Source: Verrucomicrobiota bacterium (GTDB lineage Bacteria; Verrucomicrobiota; Verrucomicrobiia; Limisphaerales; CANJSG01). Taken from it: a stretch of DNA of 64,000 nucleotides. The translations under genes and the position numbers were made by a program. The notes under the pieces were generated by a model that saw nothing but the letters and a program-made list of their open reading frames with translations, was not told where the DNA came from and did not search any database. The stretch is from assembly GCA_947476875.1 (NCBI GenBank), contig CANJSG010000002.1:1926-65925 (forward strand), written 5' to 3'. Shown in pieces: positions 51,042-60,354 of this stretch. Each line of letters opens with the position of its first letter. The first letter of the stretch is position 1.

Positions 51042-52424
51042 ATGAGGGAGCCAGCCGAACCCCGCCGTCGACCCCGCCTGCAGCGCTGGCATTGGATCGT
51101 CATCGTTCTCCTGCTGCCCTTTGTCGCCGGAATCGTCGCGGTGAAGATCCGGCGGCACGGGTTGGAAAAGGAGATCGCCCGCGAGTTGGCCGCCATCCGC
51201 GCCCGTGGCGAACCGGTCACGCCGGAGGAACTGGACGCGTGGTATCCGAAGGTGCCCGACGCCCAGAACGGCGCCCTCGTGATCACCCAAGCCTTTGCCA
51301 TGGCGTCGGAAATCGAGAAACGCGGCTCCGAAAACCTCAGCGATCTGTTCAAACTGACGAGCCAGCGAACCCTTTCGGACGAGTCGTTGATACAGGTTCG
51401 ACAGGCCGTTTCCGCACGCGAGCCTGCCCTGCGCCGGCTCCAAACGGGACTCGAAGGGGATTCCTTCCGCTACCCGATCGAGTTTACCAACGGCCTTTTT
51501 ACCACGCTGCCCCACCTTGGTAGATTGCGGAGCGCGGCCCAAATACTGGCGCTTGAAGCTCGTCTAGCCGTGGCCGACCAGAGGCCCGATCTCGCGGCCG
51601 AACGCCTGGCCAACGGATTGAAACTGGCGGAGACCCTCGAGAACGAGCCGTTGCTGATTTCCTTCCTCGTCCGATCCGCCTGCCTGGAAATCACGCAAGA
51701 GCAAGCCGCCCACTGCCTGACCATCGGCACGTTCGACGACCGCAGCCTTGCTCGCCTGGAGAAAGCGCTGGTCGAGGACAGTTCCGGAACAGGATTCAGC
51801 CGTGCAATGATCGGAGAACGATCCTGGGGATTGTCGGCATTCTCAATGGCCACCAACACTGCGGGCCTCATTCAGTTGGGAATGCTTACGGGAGGCGCGC
51901 CAGGGTCGGGGTGGGCCCCGGAGTCGATCAAACGGTGGTTCGAATTCTACGCTTACCGCGGCCTTGCGACGGATGCTGAGGATCACCTCCACTACATCCG
52001 CAGCATGACGGCGATCATCGAAGCCCACCGATTGCCGCCGGAGCAGCGGCTGTCCGCGGTCAGCAACGCAATGTGGAACGGCATCTCGGCACCCGGAACG
52101 AGCCGGTTTCTGATTTCACAGATGATGATGCCGGAACTGGAACGGGCAGCGTTGCGGGATTTGAAGATGTTGGCCGGGACAAGGTGCTTCCGGACAGCCC
52201 TCACCCTCGAACGCTTCCGCCTCGGATCCGGCGGCACGGCGCCCGACTCGCTGGACGAACTGGTGCCGAAGCATCTCGCCGCCGTCCCGGCCGATCCCTT
52301 CACCGGCCAACCGCTCCGCTACAGTCGCAACGGCAAGGGCTACGTGGTCTACAGCATCGGAGAGAACGCCCTCGATGACCACGGCGACGCCAAGCTGGAC
52401 GTCGCGTTCATCGTGGAGAAGTAG
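51042..52424 (+). CDS. Hypothetical N-terminally anchored protein with a pseudopilin-like C-terminal motif
   Basis: 460 aa. TM anchor WHWIVIVLLLPFVAGIVAV and a helical middle region. The C-terminal DPFTGQPLRYSRNGKGYVVYSIGENALDDHGD resembles the tail of GspG-type pseudopilins. No prepilin cleavage motif. Confidence 0.6.
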   Translation: MREPAEPRRRPRLQRWHWIVIVLLLPFVAGIVAVKIRRHGLEKEIARELAAIRARGEPVTPEELDAWYPKVPDAQNGALVITQAFAMASEIEKRGSENLSDLFKLTSQRTLSDESLIQVRQAVSAREPALRRLQTGLEGDSFRYPIEFTNGLFTTLPHLGRLRSAAQILALEARLAVADQRPDLAAERLANGLKLAETLENEPLLISFLVRSACLEITQEQAAHCLTIGTFDDRSLARLEKALVEDSSGTGFSRAMIGERSWGLSAFSMATNTAGLIQLGMLTGGAPGSGWAPESIKRWFEFYAYRGLATDAEDHLHYIRSMTAIIEAHRLPPEQRLSAVSNAMWNGISAPGTSRFLISQMMMPELERAALRDLKMLAGTRCFRTALTLERFRLGSGGTAPDSLDELVPKHLAAVPADPFTGQPLRYSRNGKGYVVYSIGENALDDHGDAKLDVAFIVEK

Positions 52425-52492
52425 CCGGCGGCGTTTTGGGCGGCCGCTGCGGGGCTGCGCCGCCGCCTTGAATTTCGCGGCCACTCTGTAAT

Positions 52493-52506
52493 CGCCACCG
52501 GTGGCG
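52493..52506. promoter_or_regulatory. 14-bp perfect palindrome CGCCACCGGTGGCG, 24 nt upstream of the SPFH-HTH start (candidate operator)
   Basis: Read directly from the sequence. A palindrome of this length is expected a few times by chance in 64 kb, so only its position is suggestive. Confidence 0.3.
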
Positions 52507-52529
52507 GCCGGGCTTATCACCATTTCGAA

Positions 52530-53609
52530 ATGAGCATCCTTAATTTCCTCAAGGGTCAGGCCCTCGAAGTCATCGAGTGGAACGACGATTCGCGCGACAC
52601 TCTTTCCTACCGCTGGCCTGATGAAGACAAGGCCATCAAACGCGGCGCCCAGCTCATCGTGCGCGAATCGCAGGCCGCGCAGTTCGTCTACCTCGGCGAG
52701 TTCGGCGACACCTTCGGCCCGGGCAAACACACCCTCGTCACCGAGAACATCCCGATCCTGACCAAGCTGAAGTCGTGGAAATACGCCTTCGACGTGCCGT
52801 TCAAGGCGGACGTCTACTACGTCGTCACCCGCACCTTCACCGGCAACAAGTGGGGCACGGCCAACCCGGTGATGATGCGCGATCCGGACTTCGGCATCGT
52901 CCGCGCCCGGGCCTACGGCATCTACGACTTCAAGATCGTGGAGCCGCGCACGTTCCTGAAGGAGGTCGCGGGCACGGACAACCATTTCCGGCTGGATGAA
53001 TTCCAGGAGACGATGCGGTCGAAGATCATCTCCGTCTTCAGCGAGGCGCTGGCCAGTTCCAAGGTGCCCGTGCTCGACGTGGCCATGCGTTACGGCGAAC
53101 TCGGCGATGCGCTCCTGCCCGTCATCAACCCGATCACCCGTGCCAAATACGGCATCGAAATCACGAACTTCGTGGTCGAGAACGTCTCCGTCCCGCCCGA
53201 GGTCGAGCAGGCCATCGACAAACGCTCCAGCATGGGCGCGATCGGCAACCTGAACGACTACGTGAAATTCCAGCTCGCGCAGGGCCTCGGCCAACCCGGT
53301 GGCGGCGGGGCCAGCGGCACGGCTGCGGAACTGGCGGTGGGCTTCGGCCTCGCGCAGCAGTTGATGAAGGACGGCGGCCTCACCGGCGCGGCCACGCCGC
53401 CACCGCTCCCCGGCGCGCCTGCCACCCAGCCTGCGGCCGCAGCGGCCCCGGCGTTTGAACTGCTCAGCCCGGCCGATGCGGCGAAGCTGCTCGGCGTGAG
53501 CGAAGCCGACGTGATGGCGAGCGTCACCGACGGCAGCCTCAAGGCGAAGAAGATCGGCAGCGCCTATCGGATCACGAAGACCGCGTTGGACGAGTTTCTG
53601 AAGGGTTGA
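52530..53609 (+). CDS. SPFH/Band-7 (YdjI/COG4260-like) protein fused to a C-terminal excisionase-type HTH
   Basis: 359 aa. The N-terminal part (about 270 aa; VIEWNDDSRDTLSYRWP ... LIVRESQAAQFVYLGE ... GTANPVMMRDPDFGIVRARAYGIYDFKI) matches the YdjI-like SPFH family. A Gly/Ala/Pro linker follows. The C-terminus is LLSPADAAKLLGVSEADVMASVTDGSLKAKKIGSAYRITKTALDEFL (HTH_17-like). Confidence 0.75.
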   Translation: MSILNFLKGQALEVIEWNDDSRDTLSYRWPDEDKAIKRGAQLIVRESQAAQFVYLGEFGDTFGPGKHTLVTENIPILTKLKSWKYAFDVPFKADVYYVVTRTFTGNKWGTANPVMMRDPDFGIVRARAYGIYDFKIVEPRTFLKEVAGTDNHFRLDEFQETMRSKIISVFSEALASSKVPVLDVAMRYGELGDALLPVINPITRAKYGIEITNFVVENVSVPPEVEQAIDKRSSMGAIGNLNDYVKFQLAQGLGQPGGGGASGTAAELAVGFGLAQQLMKDGGLTGAATPPPLPGAPATQPAAAAAPAFELLSPADAAKLLGVSEADVMASVTDGSLKAKKIGSAYRITKTALDEFLKG

Positions 53610-53627
53610 TGAGCCGCGGGGGTCCCA

Positions 53628-53852
53628 ATGCTTGAATTGCTCGAACTCCTCTTTGAACTGCTGTTCCACCTGATCGACGGCGCGGAGCTCCTCGAATACT
53701 GGCGCTTCTTTCTGCCGTTCTTTGCGGGGCTGGCGCTGAGCGTCTGGATATTCGGACGCTTCGCCAATCATATGGCTGGCGTCCTTTTGGCGGCCCCAGT
53801 GTTGATCGCTTCGACGGTGCTGGGTGTGATCTGGGAGCGGAACGCCGAATGA
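53628..53852 (+). CDS. 74-aa two-TM mini-protein (paralog 1)
   Basis: ATG 53628, 18 nt after the SPFH stop. Amphipathic N-terminus LELLELLFELLFHL, a WRF motif, two hydrophobic helices, and GVIWERNAE at the end. Same length as the next ORF and alignable to it without gaps. Confidence 0.6.
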   Translation: MLELLELLFELLFHLIDGAELLEYWRFFLPFFAGLALSVWIFGRFANHMAGVLLAAPVLIASTVLGVIWERNAE

Positions 53853-54073
53853 GTTCGATGCATGCGATTCTTGAACTGATTTTCGACCTACTCACGCAGC
53901 TTGGGCCTGCGTGGGATCAATGGCGCTTCGTCGTCTGCTTTGTCGGCGGGGTAGGAGTGGCGGCAATTTGCTGGATGCAGCTGCCAGCGCACTTCTCGAC
54001 TCAGTTGCTTTCCGTTGGAGCAATTCTCGCCGGCGTGGTCGCTGGGGTTGTATGGCAACGCTCTGTAAAATGA
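53849..54073 (+). CDS. 74-aa two-TM mini-protein (paralog 2)
   Basis: Its ATG overlaps the stop of paralog 1 (ATGA at 53849-53852). It shares W25-R26-F27, H48, L53-L54 and G66-V67-x-W69-x-R71 with paralog 1. Confidence 0.6.
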   Translation: MSSMHAILELIFDLLTQLGPAWDQWRFVVCFVGGVGVAAICWMQLPAHFSTQLLSVGAILAGVVAGVVWQRSVK

Positions 54074-54079
54074 CCTGAC

Positions 54080-55177
54080 ATGTCCGAAATCCTCGCCCGT
54101 GACAAATACCACTGCCCGACCTGCGGGGCCGACGCGCATTGGAACGCCGCCAAGCAGGCCCTCGTCTGTCCCTACTGCGGGACCGTCTCACCCGCCCAGC
54201 TCACGACGGACGGAGAGATCGTGGAGCACGATCTCGTCGCGGCCATGCGTTCCGTGCCCGACGACCAGCGCGGACTTAACACCGAGCGCGTCTCGGTAAA
54301 GTGCCAGAGCTGCCAGGCCATCTCGTCCTTCGAGCCGAACCGCGTCGCGCAGAACTGCGATTTCTGCGGCTCGGCCCAGCTGGTGCCCTACGAGCAGACC
54401 AAGGCCGTCATCCGTCCGGAAAGCCTGCTGCCCTTTAAGCTGGCCGACTCGGCGGTGCGCGACCAGATCCGTGCGTGGTATGGCAACCGTTGGTTCGCCC
54501 CGAGCGCCCTCAAGTCCCGCGCCCTGACCGACACCCTCAAGGGTGTTTACCTGCCCTATTGGACCTTCGATGCCAAGGTTCACGCCGACTGGACGGCCGA
54601 GTCCGGCTACTACTACTACGAGACCGAGAGCTACACCGATTCGCAGGGCAACCGCCAGACGCGCCAAGTGCAGCGGATCCGCTGGCAGTGGAGCAGCGGT
54701 TCGTTGAACCACTTCTTCGACGACAACCTCGTCGCCGGAACCAGGGGCACGCATCCCACGCTGCTGGAGAAGATCGAGCCGTTTCCCACCAAGGAACTTA
54801 TCCCCTACGACGCCGGCTACCTCGCGGGCTGGGTCGTCGAGCAATACCAGGTGGATCTGACTTCGGCCGCGCAGACTTCGCGCGACGAGATGGACGCGCA
54901 GGTCCGCGCCATGTGCGCCCGTGACGTTCCCGGCGACACCCACCGCAATCTCAATGTCGACGCGACCTACAGCGACATGACCTTCAAGCACGTGCTCGTG
55001 CCGGTGTGGCTGGTCTCCTACGTCTATGGCAGCAAGAGTTACCAGGTCCTCGTCAATGGACAGACGGGGCAGATTGCGGGCGACCGCCCCTACAGCTTCT
55101 GGAAAATCTTCTTCCTCGTCCTAGGCATCGCCGCGCTCGTTGGTCTGTTCGCGCTCGTCGCGGCGGCGAAACAGTGA
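54080..55177 (+). CDS. Double zinc-ribbon (TFIIB-type) protein with a C-terminal TM anchor, YdjG-like
   Basis: 365 aa. CPTCG-x15-CPYCG and CQSCQ-x14-CDFCG ribbons, a conserved middle region (LPYWTFDAKVHADW), and a C-terminal TM segment IFFLVLGIAALVGLFALVAAA. Confidence 0.75.
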   Translation: MSEILARDKYHCPTCGADAHWNAAKQALVCPYCGTVSPAQLTTDGEIVEHDLVAAMRSVPDDQRGLNTERVSVKCQSCQAISSFEPNRVAQNCDFCGSAQLVPYEQTKAVIRPESLLPFKLADSAVRDQIRAWYGNRWFAPSALKSRALTDTLKGVYLPYWTFDAKVHADWTAESGYYYYETESYTDSQGNRQTRQVQRIRWQWSSGSLNHFFDDNLVAGTRGTHPTLLEKIEPFPTKELIPYDAGYLAGWVVEQYQVDLTSAAQTSRDEMDAQVRAMCARDVPGDTHRNLNVDATYSDMTFKHVLVPVWLVSYVYGSKSYQVLVNGQTGQIAGDRPYSFWKIFFLVLGIAALVGLFALVAAAKQ

Positions 55178-55188
55178 CGCCCGTCACT
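55173..55188. terminator. Hairpin AGTGAC-gccc-GTCACT shared by two convergent genes
   Basis: The 6-bp stem contains both stop codons: TGA at 55175-55177 for the plus-strand gene, and TCA at 55184-55186, which is the minus-strand TGA. No U-tract, so function as a terminator is uncertain. Confidence 0.35.
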
Positions 55189-57825: not shown

Positions 57826-59370
57826 TTACAGTTCGTTCCAGGAGGTGATGACGAATCCCTGTCCTGGCCCCGACCGGCCCAGTGCTTCATCGTAGTGAAA
57901 CGAGAAGTGTCCGTTCATGGAGATCGAATTCGCGATCACCGCGCCCACACAGTCATACTGGTTGTTTCCGCCGCCGCCGGCGCTGAAAGCGGCTTGAGGG
58001 GCGTAGATGGTCCCGGTGAACGAGGCGTTTCCACCGAGGGAGATGCTGGTGCAGGTGGGCAGCCCGTAGAGGCCGAATTTCAAGGCGCCGATGTTGGCGT
58101 TCATGATCCCGTTCCCTTGCAAACTGACGCTGTCCTTCACGTAGACTTTAAGGCTGGCTCCGGCCGCGATCTCGATCTGCGATTGGCCCGCCATTGAGAA
58201 CGACCCCTTGATGTAGAGAATGGCGTCGCCCCGCACCAATACCTTGGCCTGCCCGCTCAGGCTCAGCGCGCTGAGCTGGTAGTTGCCCGTGTCCAGGACG
58301 TAGTCGTAGATCTGTAAGGCGACATTGGTCGTGTAGCTGTAGGCGGCCGCGATCCAGTTGGTCGCCGAGAAGAAGGTGTTGGTCGTGCTTTTGTTGCCCT
58401 TCACGGTCACGACTTTGTTCGAAAGCACGTAGGGTGATCCGATCGGATAGGAGGCGAGGTTGGTCGTCCAGATCCCTGTGACGGTATTGGTCGTCACCGG
58501 CACGAGCCAGGACGAGACATTGTTCGTCGAGGTAATGATATTCGTTTGGGACACGGTTCCTGGAATCGGGGCGAAGTAACCACCGGTAAACGGCTCCGTG
58601 ACGTCCGGAAACTCCAGGTTCATGTCGTTGTTGTAGCGGCCTGCCTGGACGGTGCCCGAGTTAGCGCCGTCGTTCACCCAGGCCGCCGTGCCGACGGTTC
58701 CATTGTTCAAGGATCCAGTCGGACCCGTGCTGGCCGACCCGTAGACCTTGCCGCCTCCGAGGTTGAGATTGCCGCTGTTGGCGCCGATGGATCCGTTGTC
58801 CCTCGCTTTCGCTGCATCGTAGCGGCCTGCCGTGCTGTAGTTCGGGTCCAGCGAATCGAAGCTGTCCGTGAAGATGTTGCCGGTCCAGTTGATGTCCGAC
58901 TTGGACACCATGCCGCGCGCGAACAGATTGTTTTGCTGGGTCGTCACCCGGATGGTCCGTTGGAGATAGACCTGGTTCAAACCCCCGACCATCCCTGCAT
59001 TCGACGGTTCAGGGGCGTAGCCGGTGGCGAGGATCACCGGGCTCGTGGAGAGATTGGTGTCGAGGGTGACGATGAAAATACCATTGCCGACCGTTCTCTG
59101 CATTCTCCGTAGGCCGTTGGTCAGGCTCCAACCCGTGAAATTGGTGATGTTGCGGTTGTTCAACTGGGCCAGGGCCTCTTCGACTCCCGCTTCGGCGAGA
59201 GGAATGGCCGCATTCCATTGCATCGAGCGCAGCACGCTCCGGTTCTGGTTGCCGATGATCACAAGGTAGCCGCCAAGGCCCATCGCGATGATCGCCAGGG
59301 TGAGCACCGAGATCAGAAGGACGCTTCCGGCTTGGTTCCGAGCGCGCCGTGTTTCGGGGGAGGCGTTCAT
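57826..59370 (-). CDS. Large minor-pseudopilin-like protein (PilX_N/GspK-like N-terminus, beta-rich C-terminus)
   Basis: Start at ATG 59370 (ATGA overlap). The N-terminus GSVLLISVLTLAIIAMGLGGYL ... AIPLAEAGVEEALAQL is PilX_N-like. 514 aa, with a Gly/Asn/Ser/Thr-rich repetitive body ending in FSFHYDEAL. Confidence 0.7.
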   Translation of the reverse strand: MNASPETRRARNQAGSVLLISVLTLAIIAMGLGGYLVIIGNQNRSVLRSMQWNAAIPLAEAGVEEALAQLNNRNITNFTGWSLTNGLRRMQRTVGNGIFIVTLDTNLSTSPVILATGYAPEPSNAGMVGGLNQVYLQRTIRVTTQQNNLFARGMVSKSDINWTGNIFTDSFDSLDPNYSTAGRYDAAKARDNGSIGANSGNLNLGGGKVYGSASTGPTGSLNNGTVGTAAWVNDGANSGTVQAGRYNNDMNLEFPDVTEPFTGGYFAPIPGTVSQTNIITSTNNVSSWLVPVTTNTVTGIWTTNLASYPIGSPYVLSNKVVTVKGNKSTTNTFFSATNWIAAAYSYTTNVALQIYDYVLDTGNYQLSALSLSGQAKVLVRGDAILYIKGSFSMAGQSQIEIAAGASLKVYVKDSVSLQGNGIMNANIGALKFGLYGLPTCTSISLGGNASFTGTIYAPQAAFSAGGGGNNQYDCVGAVIANSISMNGHFSFHYDEALGRSGPGQGFVITSWNEL

Positions 59371-59912
59371 TGCTTGCGGATGACGATTTTGGCGGTCTGC
59401 ACGCTTTCCGTGTTCACCTTCGACGCGAGGATCTGCCGGGAACAGGTCCACGTGACCTGCACCAGTTTTGCGTTGGTCACGGTCGCGGTTGAATACTGGT
59501 CGTAGGTGCCGCCGATGGGGTTTCTCTGGAAAATGCTGAAGGTGAGCGCGTCGCATTCCGTGAGCAGGACCGTGTTCGTCGATCCTTTGGTCTTGGTAAG
59601 CGTTTTGGCCACCCCGTCGTAGGCGTAGGTCAGGGACATGGCGTCCCAATCGGTGAAGACAAGCCGGTTGGTGGCGAAGCTGCTCAACTGTGTCGTCTGA
59701 CGGATGTCCCGGGTCATCACGTCGAGCGCGTTGCGGCTCTTCCGGTCCAGCTCCAAGTAGTTGACCAGAGCGGCGAACGAACGCCCCGTGTAGCTCATCA
59801 TCGTGGCCATCGATCCCATGACGATCATGCCGATGGCGATCGCCACGAGCATTTCAACGAGGGTGAAGCCCCGTCTGGGGCGATGCCTAGTAGATGTAGG
59901 TTTGGAGACCAT
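59367..59912 (-). CDS. Prepilin-type minor pseudopilin (GspJ/PilW-like)
   Basis: 181 aa with the RRGFTLVEMLVAIAIGMIV prepilin motif. Confidence 0.8.
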   Translation of the reverse strand: MVSKPTSTRHRPRRGFTLVEMLVAIAIGMIVMGSMATMMSYTGRSFAALVNYLELDRKSRNALDVMTRDIRQTTQLSSFATNRLVFTDWDAMSLTYAYDGVAKTLTKTKGSTNTVLLTECDALTFSIFQRNPIGGTYDQYSTATVTNAKLVQVTWTCSRQILASKVNTESVQTAKIVIRKQ

Positions 59913-60354
59913 TGCGGGCGACGAGAGTGGACATGGACCGGTTCCGGAGGACGCCGCTGGAGGTCCATGAAAGATCGACGGTTACAACGCGCAGATCGTT
60001 GCTGTAGGTCGGAGGGTTTGGGAGGTTGAAGGCGGCGATCGTGACTGCACCCGTGTAGAGCAGGCCACCTCCGTTGGTCGGACCGAAGTATGAGGAGATG
60101 AAGGTGGGCGGGACGAAGTTGTTGGAGGTGATCTGCTCGAACGTGTAGAGCCGGATCGTGTCCATTTTTTCCGCCAGGATCTGGGTGGAACGCAGGTTCT
60201 CGCGGGCCACTTGAACCACGGCGAAGCCCCACGAAATCCCGGCATAGAAGGCCACGGCCGACATGCCGAAGATGGCCATCGCGACCAGCACCTCCACCAA
60301 GGTGAAAGCCCCAGCGCCCGCTCTGTTCACTGGCTGATTTGATCGGATCTTCAT
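59887..60354 (-). CDS. Prepilin-type minor pseudopilin (GspI/PilV-like)
   Basis: 155 aa with the GAGAFTLVEVLVAMAIFGM prepilin motif. It overlaps the next gene by 26 nt. Confidence 0.8.
   Translation of the reverse strand: MKIRSNQPVNRAGAGAFTLVEVLVAMAIFGMSAVAFYAGISWGFAVVQVARENLRSTQILAEKMDTIRLYTFEQITSNNFVPPTFISSYFGPTNGGGLLYTGAVTIAAFNLPNPPTYSNDLRVVTVDLSWTSSGVLRNRSMSTLVARNGLQTYIY

Follow-up and report, generated by a model that had tools for sequence, protein, structure and literature searches.

Membranes are organised universally by proteins of the SPFH family (stomatin, flotillin, prohibitin, HflK/C), whose outputs in bacteria are for the most part unknown. The gene pair described here, which encodes an SPFH protein ending in a helix-turn-helix (HTH) domain and a membrane protein of the type of Bacillus YdjG, lies in a stretch of 64,000 nucleotides (nt) of DNA from a Verrucomicrobiota bacterium (contig CANJSG010000002.1; this whole stretch is referred to as the window). 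The closest described system is that of Bacillus, in which YdjI consists of a band-7 domain and a C-terminal zinc ribbon, YdjG consists of two zinc ribbons, a YpeB-related NTF2-like domain and a transmembrane (TM) segment, and YdjH is a TPM-domain membrane protein (Ravi et al. 2024, PMC11237479). The soluble YdjI reaches the membrane only with YdjG and YdjH and then localises PspA, and two-hybrid experiments showed YdjH binding to both YdjI and YdjG, with no binding between YdjG and YdjI (PMC8581546). A 2026 preprint renames these genes samGHI and proposes that SamI curbs signalling by SamG/H, with global transcriptional effects that arise by an unknown route (bioRxiv 10.64898/2026.02.06.704340).

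The locus in the window encodes a very common and highly conserved variant of the known module that is represented in Bacillus by the envelope-stress proteins YdjI and YdjG (SamI and SamG). This variant has an HTH tail on the SPFH protein, comes without PspA and YdjH, and is automatically annotated and, as far as we found, undescribed. As in B. subtilis YdjI/SamI, the SPFH protein of the pspA-ydjGHI (pspA-samGHI) operon, a soluble Band_7_1 core without a TM segment is followed by a low-complexity linker and then a short C-terminal module, and a YdjG-type gene is adjacent. Additionally, the zinc-ribbon-tailed protein P0256, which has the YdjI architecture, is 49% identical over residues 1-285. 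The likeness to YdjI is one of family and architecture. The two systems differ in that the tail here is HTH_17 and not a zinc ribbon, that the SPFH gene precedes the YdjG-like gene, which bears out an initial annotation of this DNA that had described the order as inverted relative to Bacillus ydjG-ydjH-ydjI, that no pspA or YdjH/TPM gene is linked, and that the HTH-tailed dyad occurs in Gram-negative phyla. The partner protein shares with YdjG/SamG the two N-terminal CxxC...CxxC ribbons, the central alpha+beta domain, the C-terminal TM segment and full-length homology, but it is only 23% identical and is encoded directly beside the SPFH gene, with no YdjH.

A conserved gene pair for an SPFH-HTH protein and a YdjG-like protein

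The window carries four open reading frames (ORFs) on the plus strand, separated by 18, -4 and 6 nt, and their coordinates, common strand and spacing were reproduced exactly as the initial annotation had given them (Table 1). That annotation had also treated the four genes as one unit, whereas in our neighbourhood survey of related loci only the SPFH-HTH gene and the YdjG-like gene were syntenic, the YdjG-like gene lying directly downstream in 73 of 83 loci, and the two small genes between them were found in the closest relatives only. Clustering of neighbouring ORFs across 81 loci returned the same two genes as the only recurrent families; the two other large neighbour clusters resemble shadow ORFs of these genes. 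What is conserved is a module of two genes, SPFH-HTH and YdjG-like, and not a four-gene operon, and the tight four-gene layout is lineage-specific, without wider conservation.

A scan with one genome per species detected full-length SPFH-HTH proteins in at least 593 species genomes. Among the best 120 database matches, PF13421 and PF12728 were found together in all 120, and some of these matches are already named 'SPFH and helix-turn-helix domain-containing protein' by NCBI/JGI annotation. The architecture is therefore neither rare nor uncatalogued, as had been supposed initially; it is catalogued as an automatically assigned name, and our literature search found no paper that pairs SPFH or Band_7_1 with HTH_17 or that describes or studies this architecture. 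The 80 loci examined comprised about 32 from Verrucomicrobiota, 22 from Acidobacteriota, 20 from Betaproteobacteria and 6 of other or unclear origin, at 65-72% identity to the query, and the closest among the matches listed came from a Verrucomicrobiota metagenome-assembled genome (MAG; 97% identity). One sequence, P0271 (357 amino acids, aa), aligned over its full length at 46% identity with an odd composition (many residues replaced by C, V, F or L), and probably reflects a template that was damaged, heavily mutated or mis-sequenced, not a genuine variant.

Profile scans placed both domains of the SPFH-HTH protein above the Pfam cut-offs, as expected from the initial description of a Band-7/YdjI-type SPFH protein with an excisionase-type HTH tail. 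PF13421 matched with E = 6.5e-81 (271.4 bits against a cut-off of 24) and HTH_17 (PF12728) with E = 1.3e-9 (38.6 bits against 27), and the tail was also recognised by TIGR01764 ('excise', excisionase family DNA-binding protein; E = 8e-9, 35.7 bits against 28.8). A match of the tail to the magnetosome protein MamR (E = 2e-6) stayed under the cut-off of that model. The AlphaFold model of the tail (predicted local distance difference test score, pLDDT, of about 80) has the order beta-alpha-alpha-beta-beta-alpha, as in an excisionase/MerR-type winged helix, so that the HTH assignment of the C-terminal 50 or so residues agrees between the two profiles and the predicted fold. Foldseek matched the SPFH core (pLDDT about 70) to stomatin, HflK/C, flotillin, prohibitin and erlin at probability 1.0. 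No hydrophobic segment of the protein reached the TM threshold, and sequence searches of the PDB with the tail, the Band_7_1 profile and the profile of the YdjG-like protein gave nothing useful.

Between the two domains, the Gly/Ala/Pro linker noted initially was confirmed, with 53% G+A+P over residues 241-310 and a length of about 70 aa. Conservation over 82 orthologs was 0.85 for the core, 0.72 for the HTH and 0.43 for linker residues 283-310, and K338, K340, K341 and R347 in the wing of the HTH are invariant (alignment A1). The linker motif 'PPPLPG', suggested by the GYF_2 tails of sister proteins, was considered as a conserved docking site and dropped, since only 19 of the 82 orthologs have it.

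The partner gene encodes a protein for which a double zinc ribbon and a C-terminal TM anchor like those of Bacillus YdjG had been proposed, and full-length homology was indeed found. Its CxxC motifs at residues 12, 30, 75 and 93 form two CxxC-x14-CxxC ribbons, and all eight ribbon cysteines are invariant in 33 homologs (alignment A2). Residues 10-352 aligned with residues 5-324 of B. subtilis YdjG at 23% identity (E = 5e-33), using a query verified by exact lookup ('PspA localization factor YdjG', YDJG_BACSU), and this end-to-end alignment identifies the 365-aa protein as a true YdjG/SamG homolog. The central alpha+beta domain gave a weak PepSY match at aa 307-334 and no significant PDB fold match. 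The predicted topology is that of a tail-anchored protein whose main part lies in the cytoplasm. Ratios of nonsynonymous to synonymous substitution rates (dN/dS) were about 0.05 for the SPFH-HTH gene and about 0.06 for the YdjG-like gene, with both within 0.05-0.07, and the two core genes are under strong purifying selection.

Table 1. Features of the SPFH-HTH locus; positions are numbered from the first nucleotide of the window.
Feature	Position	Strand	Description
-10-like TGTAAT	52487-52492	+	Common to the window and close relatives
14-nt palindrome CGCCACCGGTGGCG	52493-52506	+	Window-specific; its start is the start coordinate used in the initial annotation
SPFH-HTH gene, 359 aa	52530-53609	+	Band_7_1 SPFH and C-terminal HTH_17; soluble
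Band_7_1 (PF13421) SPFH core, aa 27-236	52608-53237	+	Profile match and fold
Gly/Ala/Pro-rich segment and flexible linker, aa 237-310	53238-53459	+	Composition, low conservation, pLDDT <50
HTH_17 / excisionase-type winged helix, aa 311-358	53460-53603	+	PF12728, TIGR01764, model
mini1, 74 aa	53628-53852	+	Acidic amphipathic N-terminal helix, WRF motif, two TM segments
mini2, 74 aa	53849-54073	+	Paralog of mini1, two TM segments; presence varies, sequence hypervariable
YdjG/SamG-type gene, 365 aa	54080-55177	+	Two zinc ribbons, central alpha+beta domain, C-terminal TM
Zinc ribbon 1, C12-C15...C30-C33	54113-54178	+	CxxC motifs; weak Zn_Ribbon_TF match
Zinc ribbon 2, C75-C78...C93-C96	54302-54367	+	CxxC motifs
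Central alpha+beta domain, about aa 110-335	54407-55084	+	Model, pLDDT mostly 75-96
C-terminal TM helix, aa 343-361	55106-55162	+	Hydropathy 2.92; model helix 340-364

Interchangeable tails on the Band_7_1 core

An exhaustive HMMER search recovered 4,388 Band_7_1 representatives at E <= 1e-3, among which the HTH fusion is essentially one cluster at 50% identity; the alignments of the other representatives end at residue 280-310 or thereabouts. A Pfam census of the tails of 72 full-length representatives counted about 21 zinc ribbons, 16 GYF_2, 14 SHOCT and 2 HTH_17 domains, and the association of this family with SHOCT had been noted in 2013 (PMC3581485). HTH_17 is one of several swappable C-terminal modules in this SPFH family, and the interchange of zinc ribbon, GYF_2, SHOCT and HTH_17 tails suggests a general 'scaffold plus adaptor' design.

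Some of the proteins with other tails retain the same neighbour. On Paracoccus and Vibrio replicons, a Band_7_1 protein with a GYF_2 tail is followed at 1-3 nt by a gene for a YdjG-like protein that is 32-36% identical to the 365-aa protein of the window, so the partner accompanies the SPFH core independently of the tail type. These dyads (found on chromids and plasmids of Paracoccus, Vibrio and Pseudorhodobacter) have the same tight two-gene order as the locus described here and an SPFH core of 45-48% identity; they differ from it in the tail, GYF_2 being a binder of proline motifs, and in the Paracoccus case in following TelA and DUF2927 genes. The HTH version of the dyad was itself present on a Comamonas plasmid.

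The surroundings of the relatives with other tails provided further observations. On plasmid pFER4 of Paracoccus ferrooxidans (L096:2719-4919), the GYF_2 dyad stands directly 3' of same-strand TelA (toxic anion resistance, PF05816) and DUF2927 genes, a proximity that may link it to another envelope-stress family. On a Vibrio coralliilyticus plasmid (L098:1-4114), the GYF_2 dyad adjoins divergent genes whose products are a TIR-domain protein and one with a 'TRAFs-binding domain'. The setting resembles a defence island; it was encountered once, and not with the HTH variant. Short contigs of representatives with zinc-ribbon, SHOCT and divergent tails yielded one observation. At L093:388-792 and L094:48-452, the gene of the SHOCT-tailed protein P0286 is preceded by one for a DUF350 membrane protein and, on these short contigs, has no YdjG-like gene in that place; the tail classes may use different membrane partners.

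Two further groups of described proteins can be compared with SPFH-HTH, each through one of its domains. Classical SPFH scaffolds (HflK/C, stomatin, flotillin, prohibitin, QmcA) share the SPFH fold, and by analogy SPFH-HTH would be expected to form higher-order oligomers that organise membrane partners. Unlike SPFH-HTH, which has no TM segment, short helices after the SPFH domain and a C-terminal HTH, they carry a TM or hairpin anchor of their own and long coiled-coil walls. Excisionase/MerR-type HTH_17 proteins (Xis, TorI, AlpA, MamR) share with the tail the matches to PF12728 and TIGR01764 and the winged-helix order, but they are small, stand-alone proteins usually encoded near integrases or mobile elements, whereas SPFH-HTH carries the domain at the end of a 359-aa scaffold protein encoded in chromosomal housekeeping contexts.

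Proposed function of the module and alternatives

With somewhat better than even confidence, we interpret the dyad as a SamI/SamG-type two-gene membrane-scaffold module, in which the anchor recruits the soluble SPFH scaffold and the tail binds a client, most likely DNA. The YdjG-like protein, a tail-anchored membrane protein by its predicted topology, would act as a receptor exposed to the cytoplasm, and SPFH-HTH would oligomerise as other SPFH proteins do. By analogy with YdjI, the anchor would bring SPFH-HTH to the cytoplasmic side of the membrane, and there the complex may monitor or organise the membrane. The HTH_17 domain, held on a flexible linker of about 70 aa, would then be the swappable output or client-binding end. 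For the HTH variant the client would most likely be DNA, and the scaffold could tether or sequester the DNA-binding domain and in this way couple the state of the membrane to the nucleoid or to transcription. The small proteins encoded between the two core genes would be accessory membrane subunits outside this core mechanism.

The identity of the client is the less certain part of this proposal, and for DNA binding by the HTH tail we would put the chance a little short of even. HTH_17/excisionase domains bind DNA (Xis, TorI, MerR N-terminal domains), and because of this established knowledge, together with the invariance of the basic wing, DNA is the most plausible client. A role as protein adaptor is almost as likely, because GYF_2 or SHOCT takes the place of the HTH in sister proteins and no operator was found.

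Several observations weigh against the proposed mechanism. The GYF_2 and SHOCT tails, which are not known DNA binders, occur on the same core and speak against DNA binding as an intrinsic property of the system, and the members that bear an HTH are known from sequence alone. No conserved operator or enriched motif was found upstream of the SPFH-HTH gene in 77 loci, where neither a k-mer nor an inverted dyad was enriched relative to shuffled sequences, a result that by itself neither establishes nor rules out DNA binding. The Bacillus partners of the module were also not encountered: no ESCRT-III-like PspA was identified among the PspA-sized ORFs of the window in a search that was not exhaustive, which agrees with its reported absence there, pspA was not a recurrent neighbour in the 81 loci, and no TPM/YdjH family was recurrent near these loci. 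In addition, about 8 loci of the Verrucomicrobiaceae/Prosthecobacter type have no adjacent YdjG-like gene, and direct docking of the SPFH protein on the YdjG-like protein is an assumption, given that in Bacillus the contact is between YdjH and YdjI. The AlphaFold model of the full SPFH-HTH protein was poor (pLDDT 54; shallow alignment), and only its tail and SPFH core region were used.

The main idea of the initial annotation was a membrane-sequestered transcription factor, in which the YdjG-like protein would hold SPFH-HTH inactive until envelope stress releases the regulator, following the logic of PspA and PspF. A canonical excisionase/MerR-type HTH that exceeds the family cut-offs, is strongly conserved and has a basic wing would suit such a regulator, as would the global transcriptional changes, by an unknown route, upon loss of SamI in Bacillus (bioRxiv 10.64898/2026.02.06.704340). 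We nevertheless consider it unlikely, as none of the 77 upstream regions pointed to an operator, the palindrome CGCCACCGGTGGCG of the window, tried as a candidate operator and rejected, is already broken in relatives of 95-97% identity, large SPFH oligomers would be unusual for a diffusible site-specific regulator, and the same core bears GYF_2, SHOCT or zinc-ribbon tails, of which the GYF_2 variants keep the same partner. In its broader form, as a membrane-tethered regulator or DNA anchor, the idea is possible, and it is weakened by the interchangeable tail, by the GYF_2 variants with the same partner and by the lack of a conserved operator. The modular position of the tail, along with the nature of GYF_2 and SHOCT as peptide-binding or oligomerisation modules, would fit a second explanation, that HTH_17 is a protein-protein adaptor that does not bind DNA and docks, for example, on the zinc ribbons of the YdjG-like protein or on another client, in a manner equivalent to the zinc-ribbon, GYF_2 and SHOCT tails. 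The failure to find an operator upstream points the same way, and the MamR match, despite lying below its cut-off, was taken to show that the fold occurs in membrane-organelle proteins. The invariant wing formed by K338, K340, K341 and R347 resembles a nucleic-acid-binding surface and, as with the established DNA binding of HTH_17/excisionase domains, speaks against a pure adaptor, which as a full account of the module we regard as a credible minority view.

A role of the HTH in sensing or anchoring phage or plasmid DNA at the membrane, for defence or plasmid maintenance, was also proposed initially and found no support in our searches. Excisionase-type HTH domains are typical of mobile elements, yet the PHROGs match was to the generic excisionase fold only, and PADLOC returned no relevant match, its sole result being that the HTH tail weakly resembled mad1 (E = 0.0017). 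Identities of 65-72% across three phyla suggest horizontal spread, and the Comamonas plasmid and the TIR-domain genes beside the GYF_2 variant in Vibrio could be read in the same direction; however, the plasmid matches were mostly to chromids or megaplasmids, no relative was present in 2.9 million viral contigs, and deposited phages yielded 3 weak matches to the SPFH core at 25-27% identity. The neighbourhoods vary and consist of housekeeping genes, among which neither an integrase nor any other partner recurs, and strong purifying selection is atypical of defence genes. Altogether, we regard a mobile-element or anti-phage module as highly improbable.

A stronger form of the scaffold interpretation, that the dyad, carried by at least 593 species in three or more phyla, is a one-step signalling or tethering device in which an SPFH scaffold on a SamG-type sensor has its own DNA-binding output, is rather doubtful in our judgement. 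If it were true, membrane stress might free the scaffold, which would then reprogram transcription, or the nucleoid might be physically coupled to the membrane, and the dyad would supply the connection that is so far missing between complexes of the SamGHI type and the transcriptional effects seen in Bacillus. To our knowledge, a tail that binds DNA would give the SPFH family its first member that acts directly on nucleic acid; a tail that is only a protein adaptor would make the protein a routine architectural variant. With one conserved partner and occurrence in hundreds of soil and freshwater species, the dyad offers a minimal two-gene system for a direct test of the output end of a bacterial SPFH scaffold.

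The small genes at the core junction and the surroundings of the locus

The paralogy proposed initially for the two 74-aa proteins encoded between the core genes (mini1 and mini2) was borne out, as they are 30% identical (E = 2e-7) and each has the acidic amphipathic N-terminal helix, the WRF motif and two predicted TM segments. They matched no Pfam, NCBIfam or PHROG family, and their own family comprised only 8 clusters in a database of 5.8 billion proteins. The dN/dS of mini1 was 0.15-0.24, which indicates purifying selection and therefore a real gene. Two copies were present in the window, L084 and L088/L089, one copy in L004/L086/L087, one shortened copy of 51 aa in L090/L091, and none in relatives at 75% identity or less.

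The second copy is the more variable of the two and has no counterpart in the 97%-identical relative L004/L086. When the mini2 gene of the window was compared with the second small gene of L088 (498-713) and L089 (2482-2697), dN was 0.62 and dS was saturated, while the flanking SPFH and zinc-ribbon genes were about 97% identical with a dN of about 0.02. Non-orthologous replacement, diversifying selection or paralog shuffling could each account for this hypervariability.

The spacing of the core genes across related loci ranged from 7 nt to about 1 kb, and most junctions were empty. In Casimicrobiaceae and other Betaproteobacteria (L016:7073-7510, L021:1162-1602, L027:7112-7552, L033:7093-7527, L049:7080-7526), the junction holds a gene for a DUF4019 protein of about 145 aa with a signal peptide (PF13211, E = 4.6e-30 on the L016 copy, the one copy scanned). 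In an Akkermansiaceae MAG (L038:7135-7499), it holds ORFs of 63 and 58 aa that resemble, by inspection only, a HicB/HicA toxin-antitoxin pair. The variable, lineage-bound copy number of the minis, combined with the purifying selection on mini1, indicates that the minis are real, lineage-specific accessories; they are co-expressed, occupy a permissive insertion point and are not a conserved substitute for YdjH. The earlier statement that two paralogs fill the YdjH slot holds for their position but not as a replacement, since they match no family, YdjH is described as a TPM-domain protein, and other lineages have DUF4019, a HicAB-like pair or nothing in this place.

Upstream of the SPFH-HTH gene, the -10-like TCTGTAAT is retained in relatives of 79-97% identity, only within the clade. 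A consensus scan detected no sigma-70 promoter, and the number of sites resembling terminators did not exceed that in shuffled sequence. The upstream gene in the relatives of 95-97% identity (L086:1689-2615, L089:158-1084, L090:1857-2783) is ftsY (SRP54 family), with PHP and NusB genes before it, and its position in the window (51042-52424) is taken by a 460-aa protein with an N-terminal TM segment and no family match. This swap of the upstream gene is a local rearrangement at the 5' boundary of the operon.

Downstream, the YdjG-like gene and a convergent ORF of 631 aa end 6 nt apart (55177-55184), which leaves too little space for a terminator on either strand. The 631-aa ORF had no Pfam match and, given its overlap with a gene for an ABC-ATPase, is putatively a membrane permease. 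Further along the window, on the minus strand at 57826-60354, genes with prepilin-type N-terminal motifs (e.g., FTLVEMLVA, FTLVEVLVA) and a gene for a 607-aa protein form a cluster that, on inspection alone, resembles a pseudopilin set of a type II secretion system or a type IV pilus.

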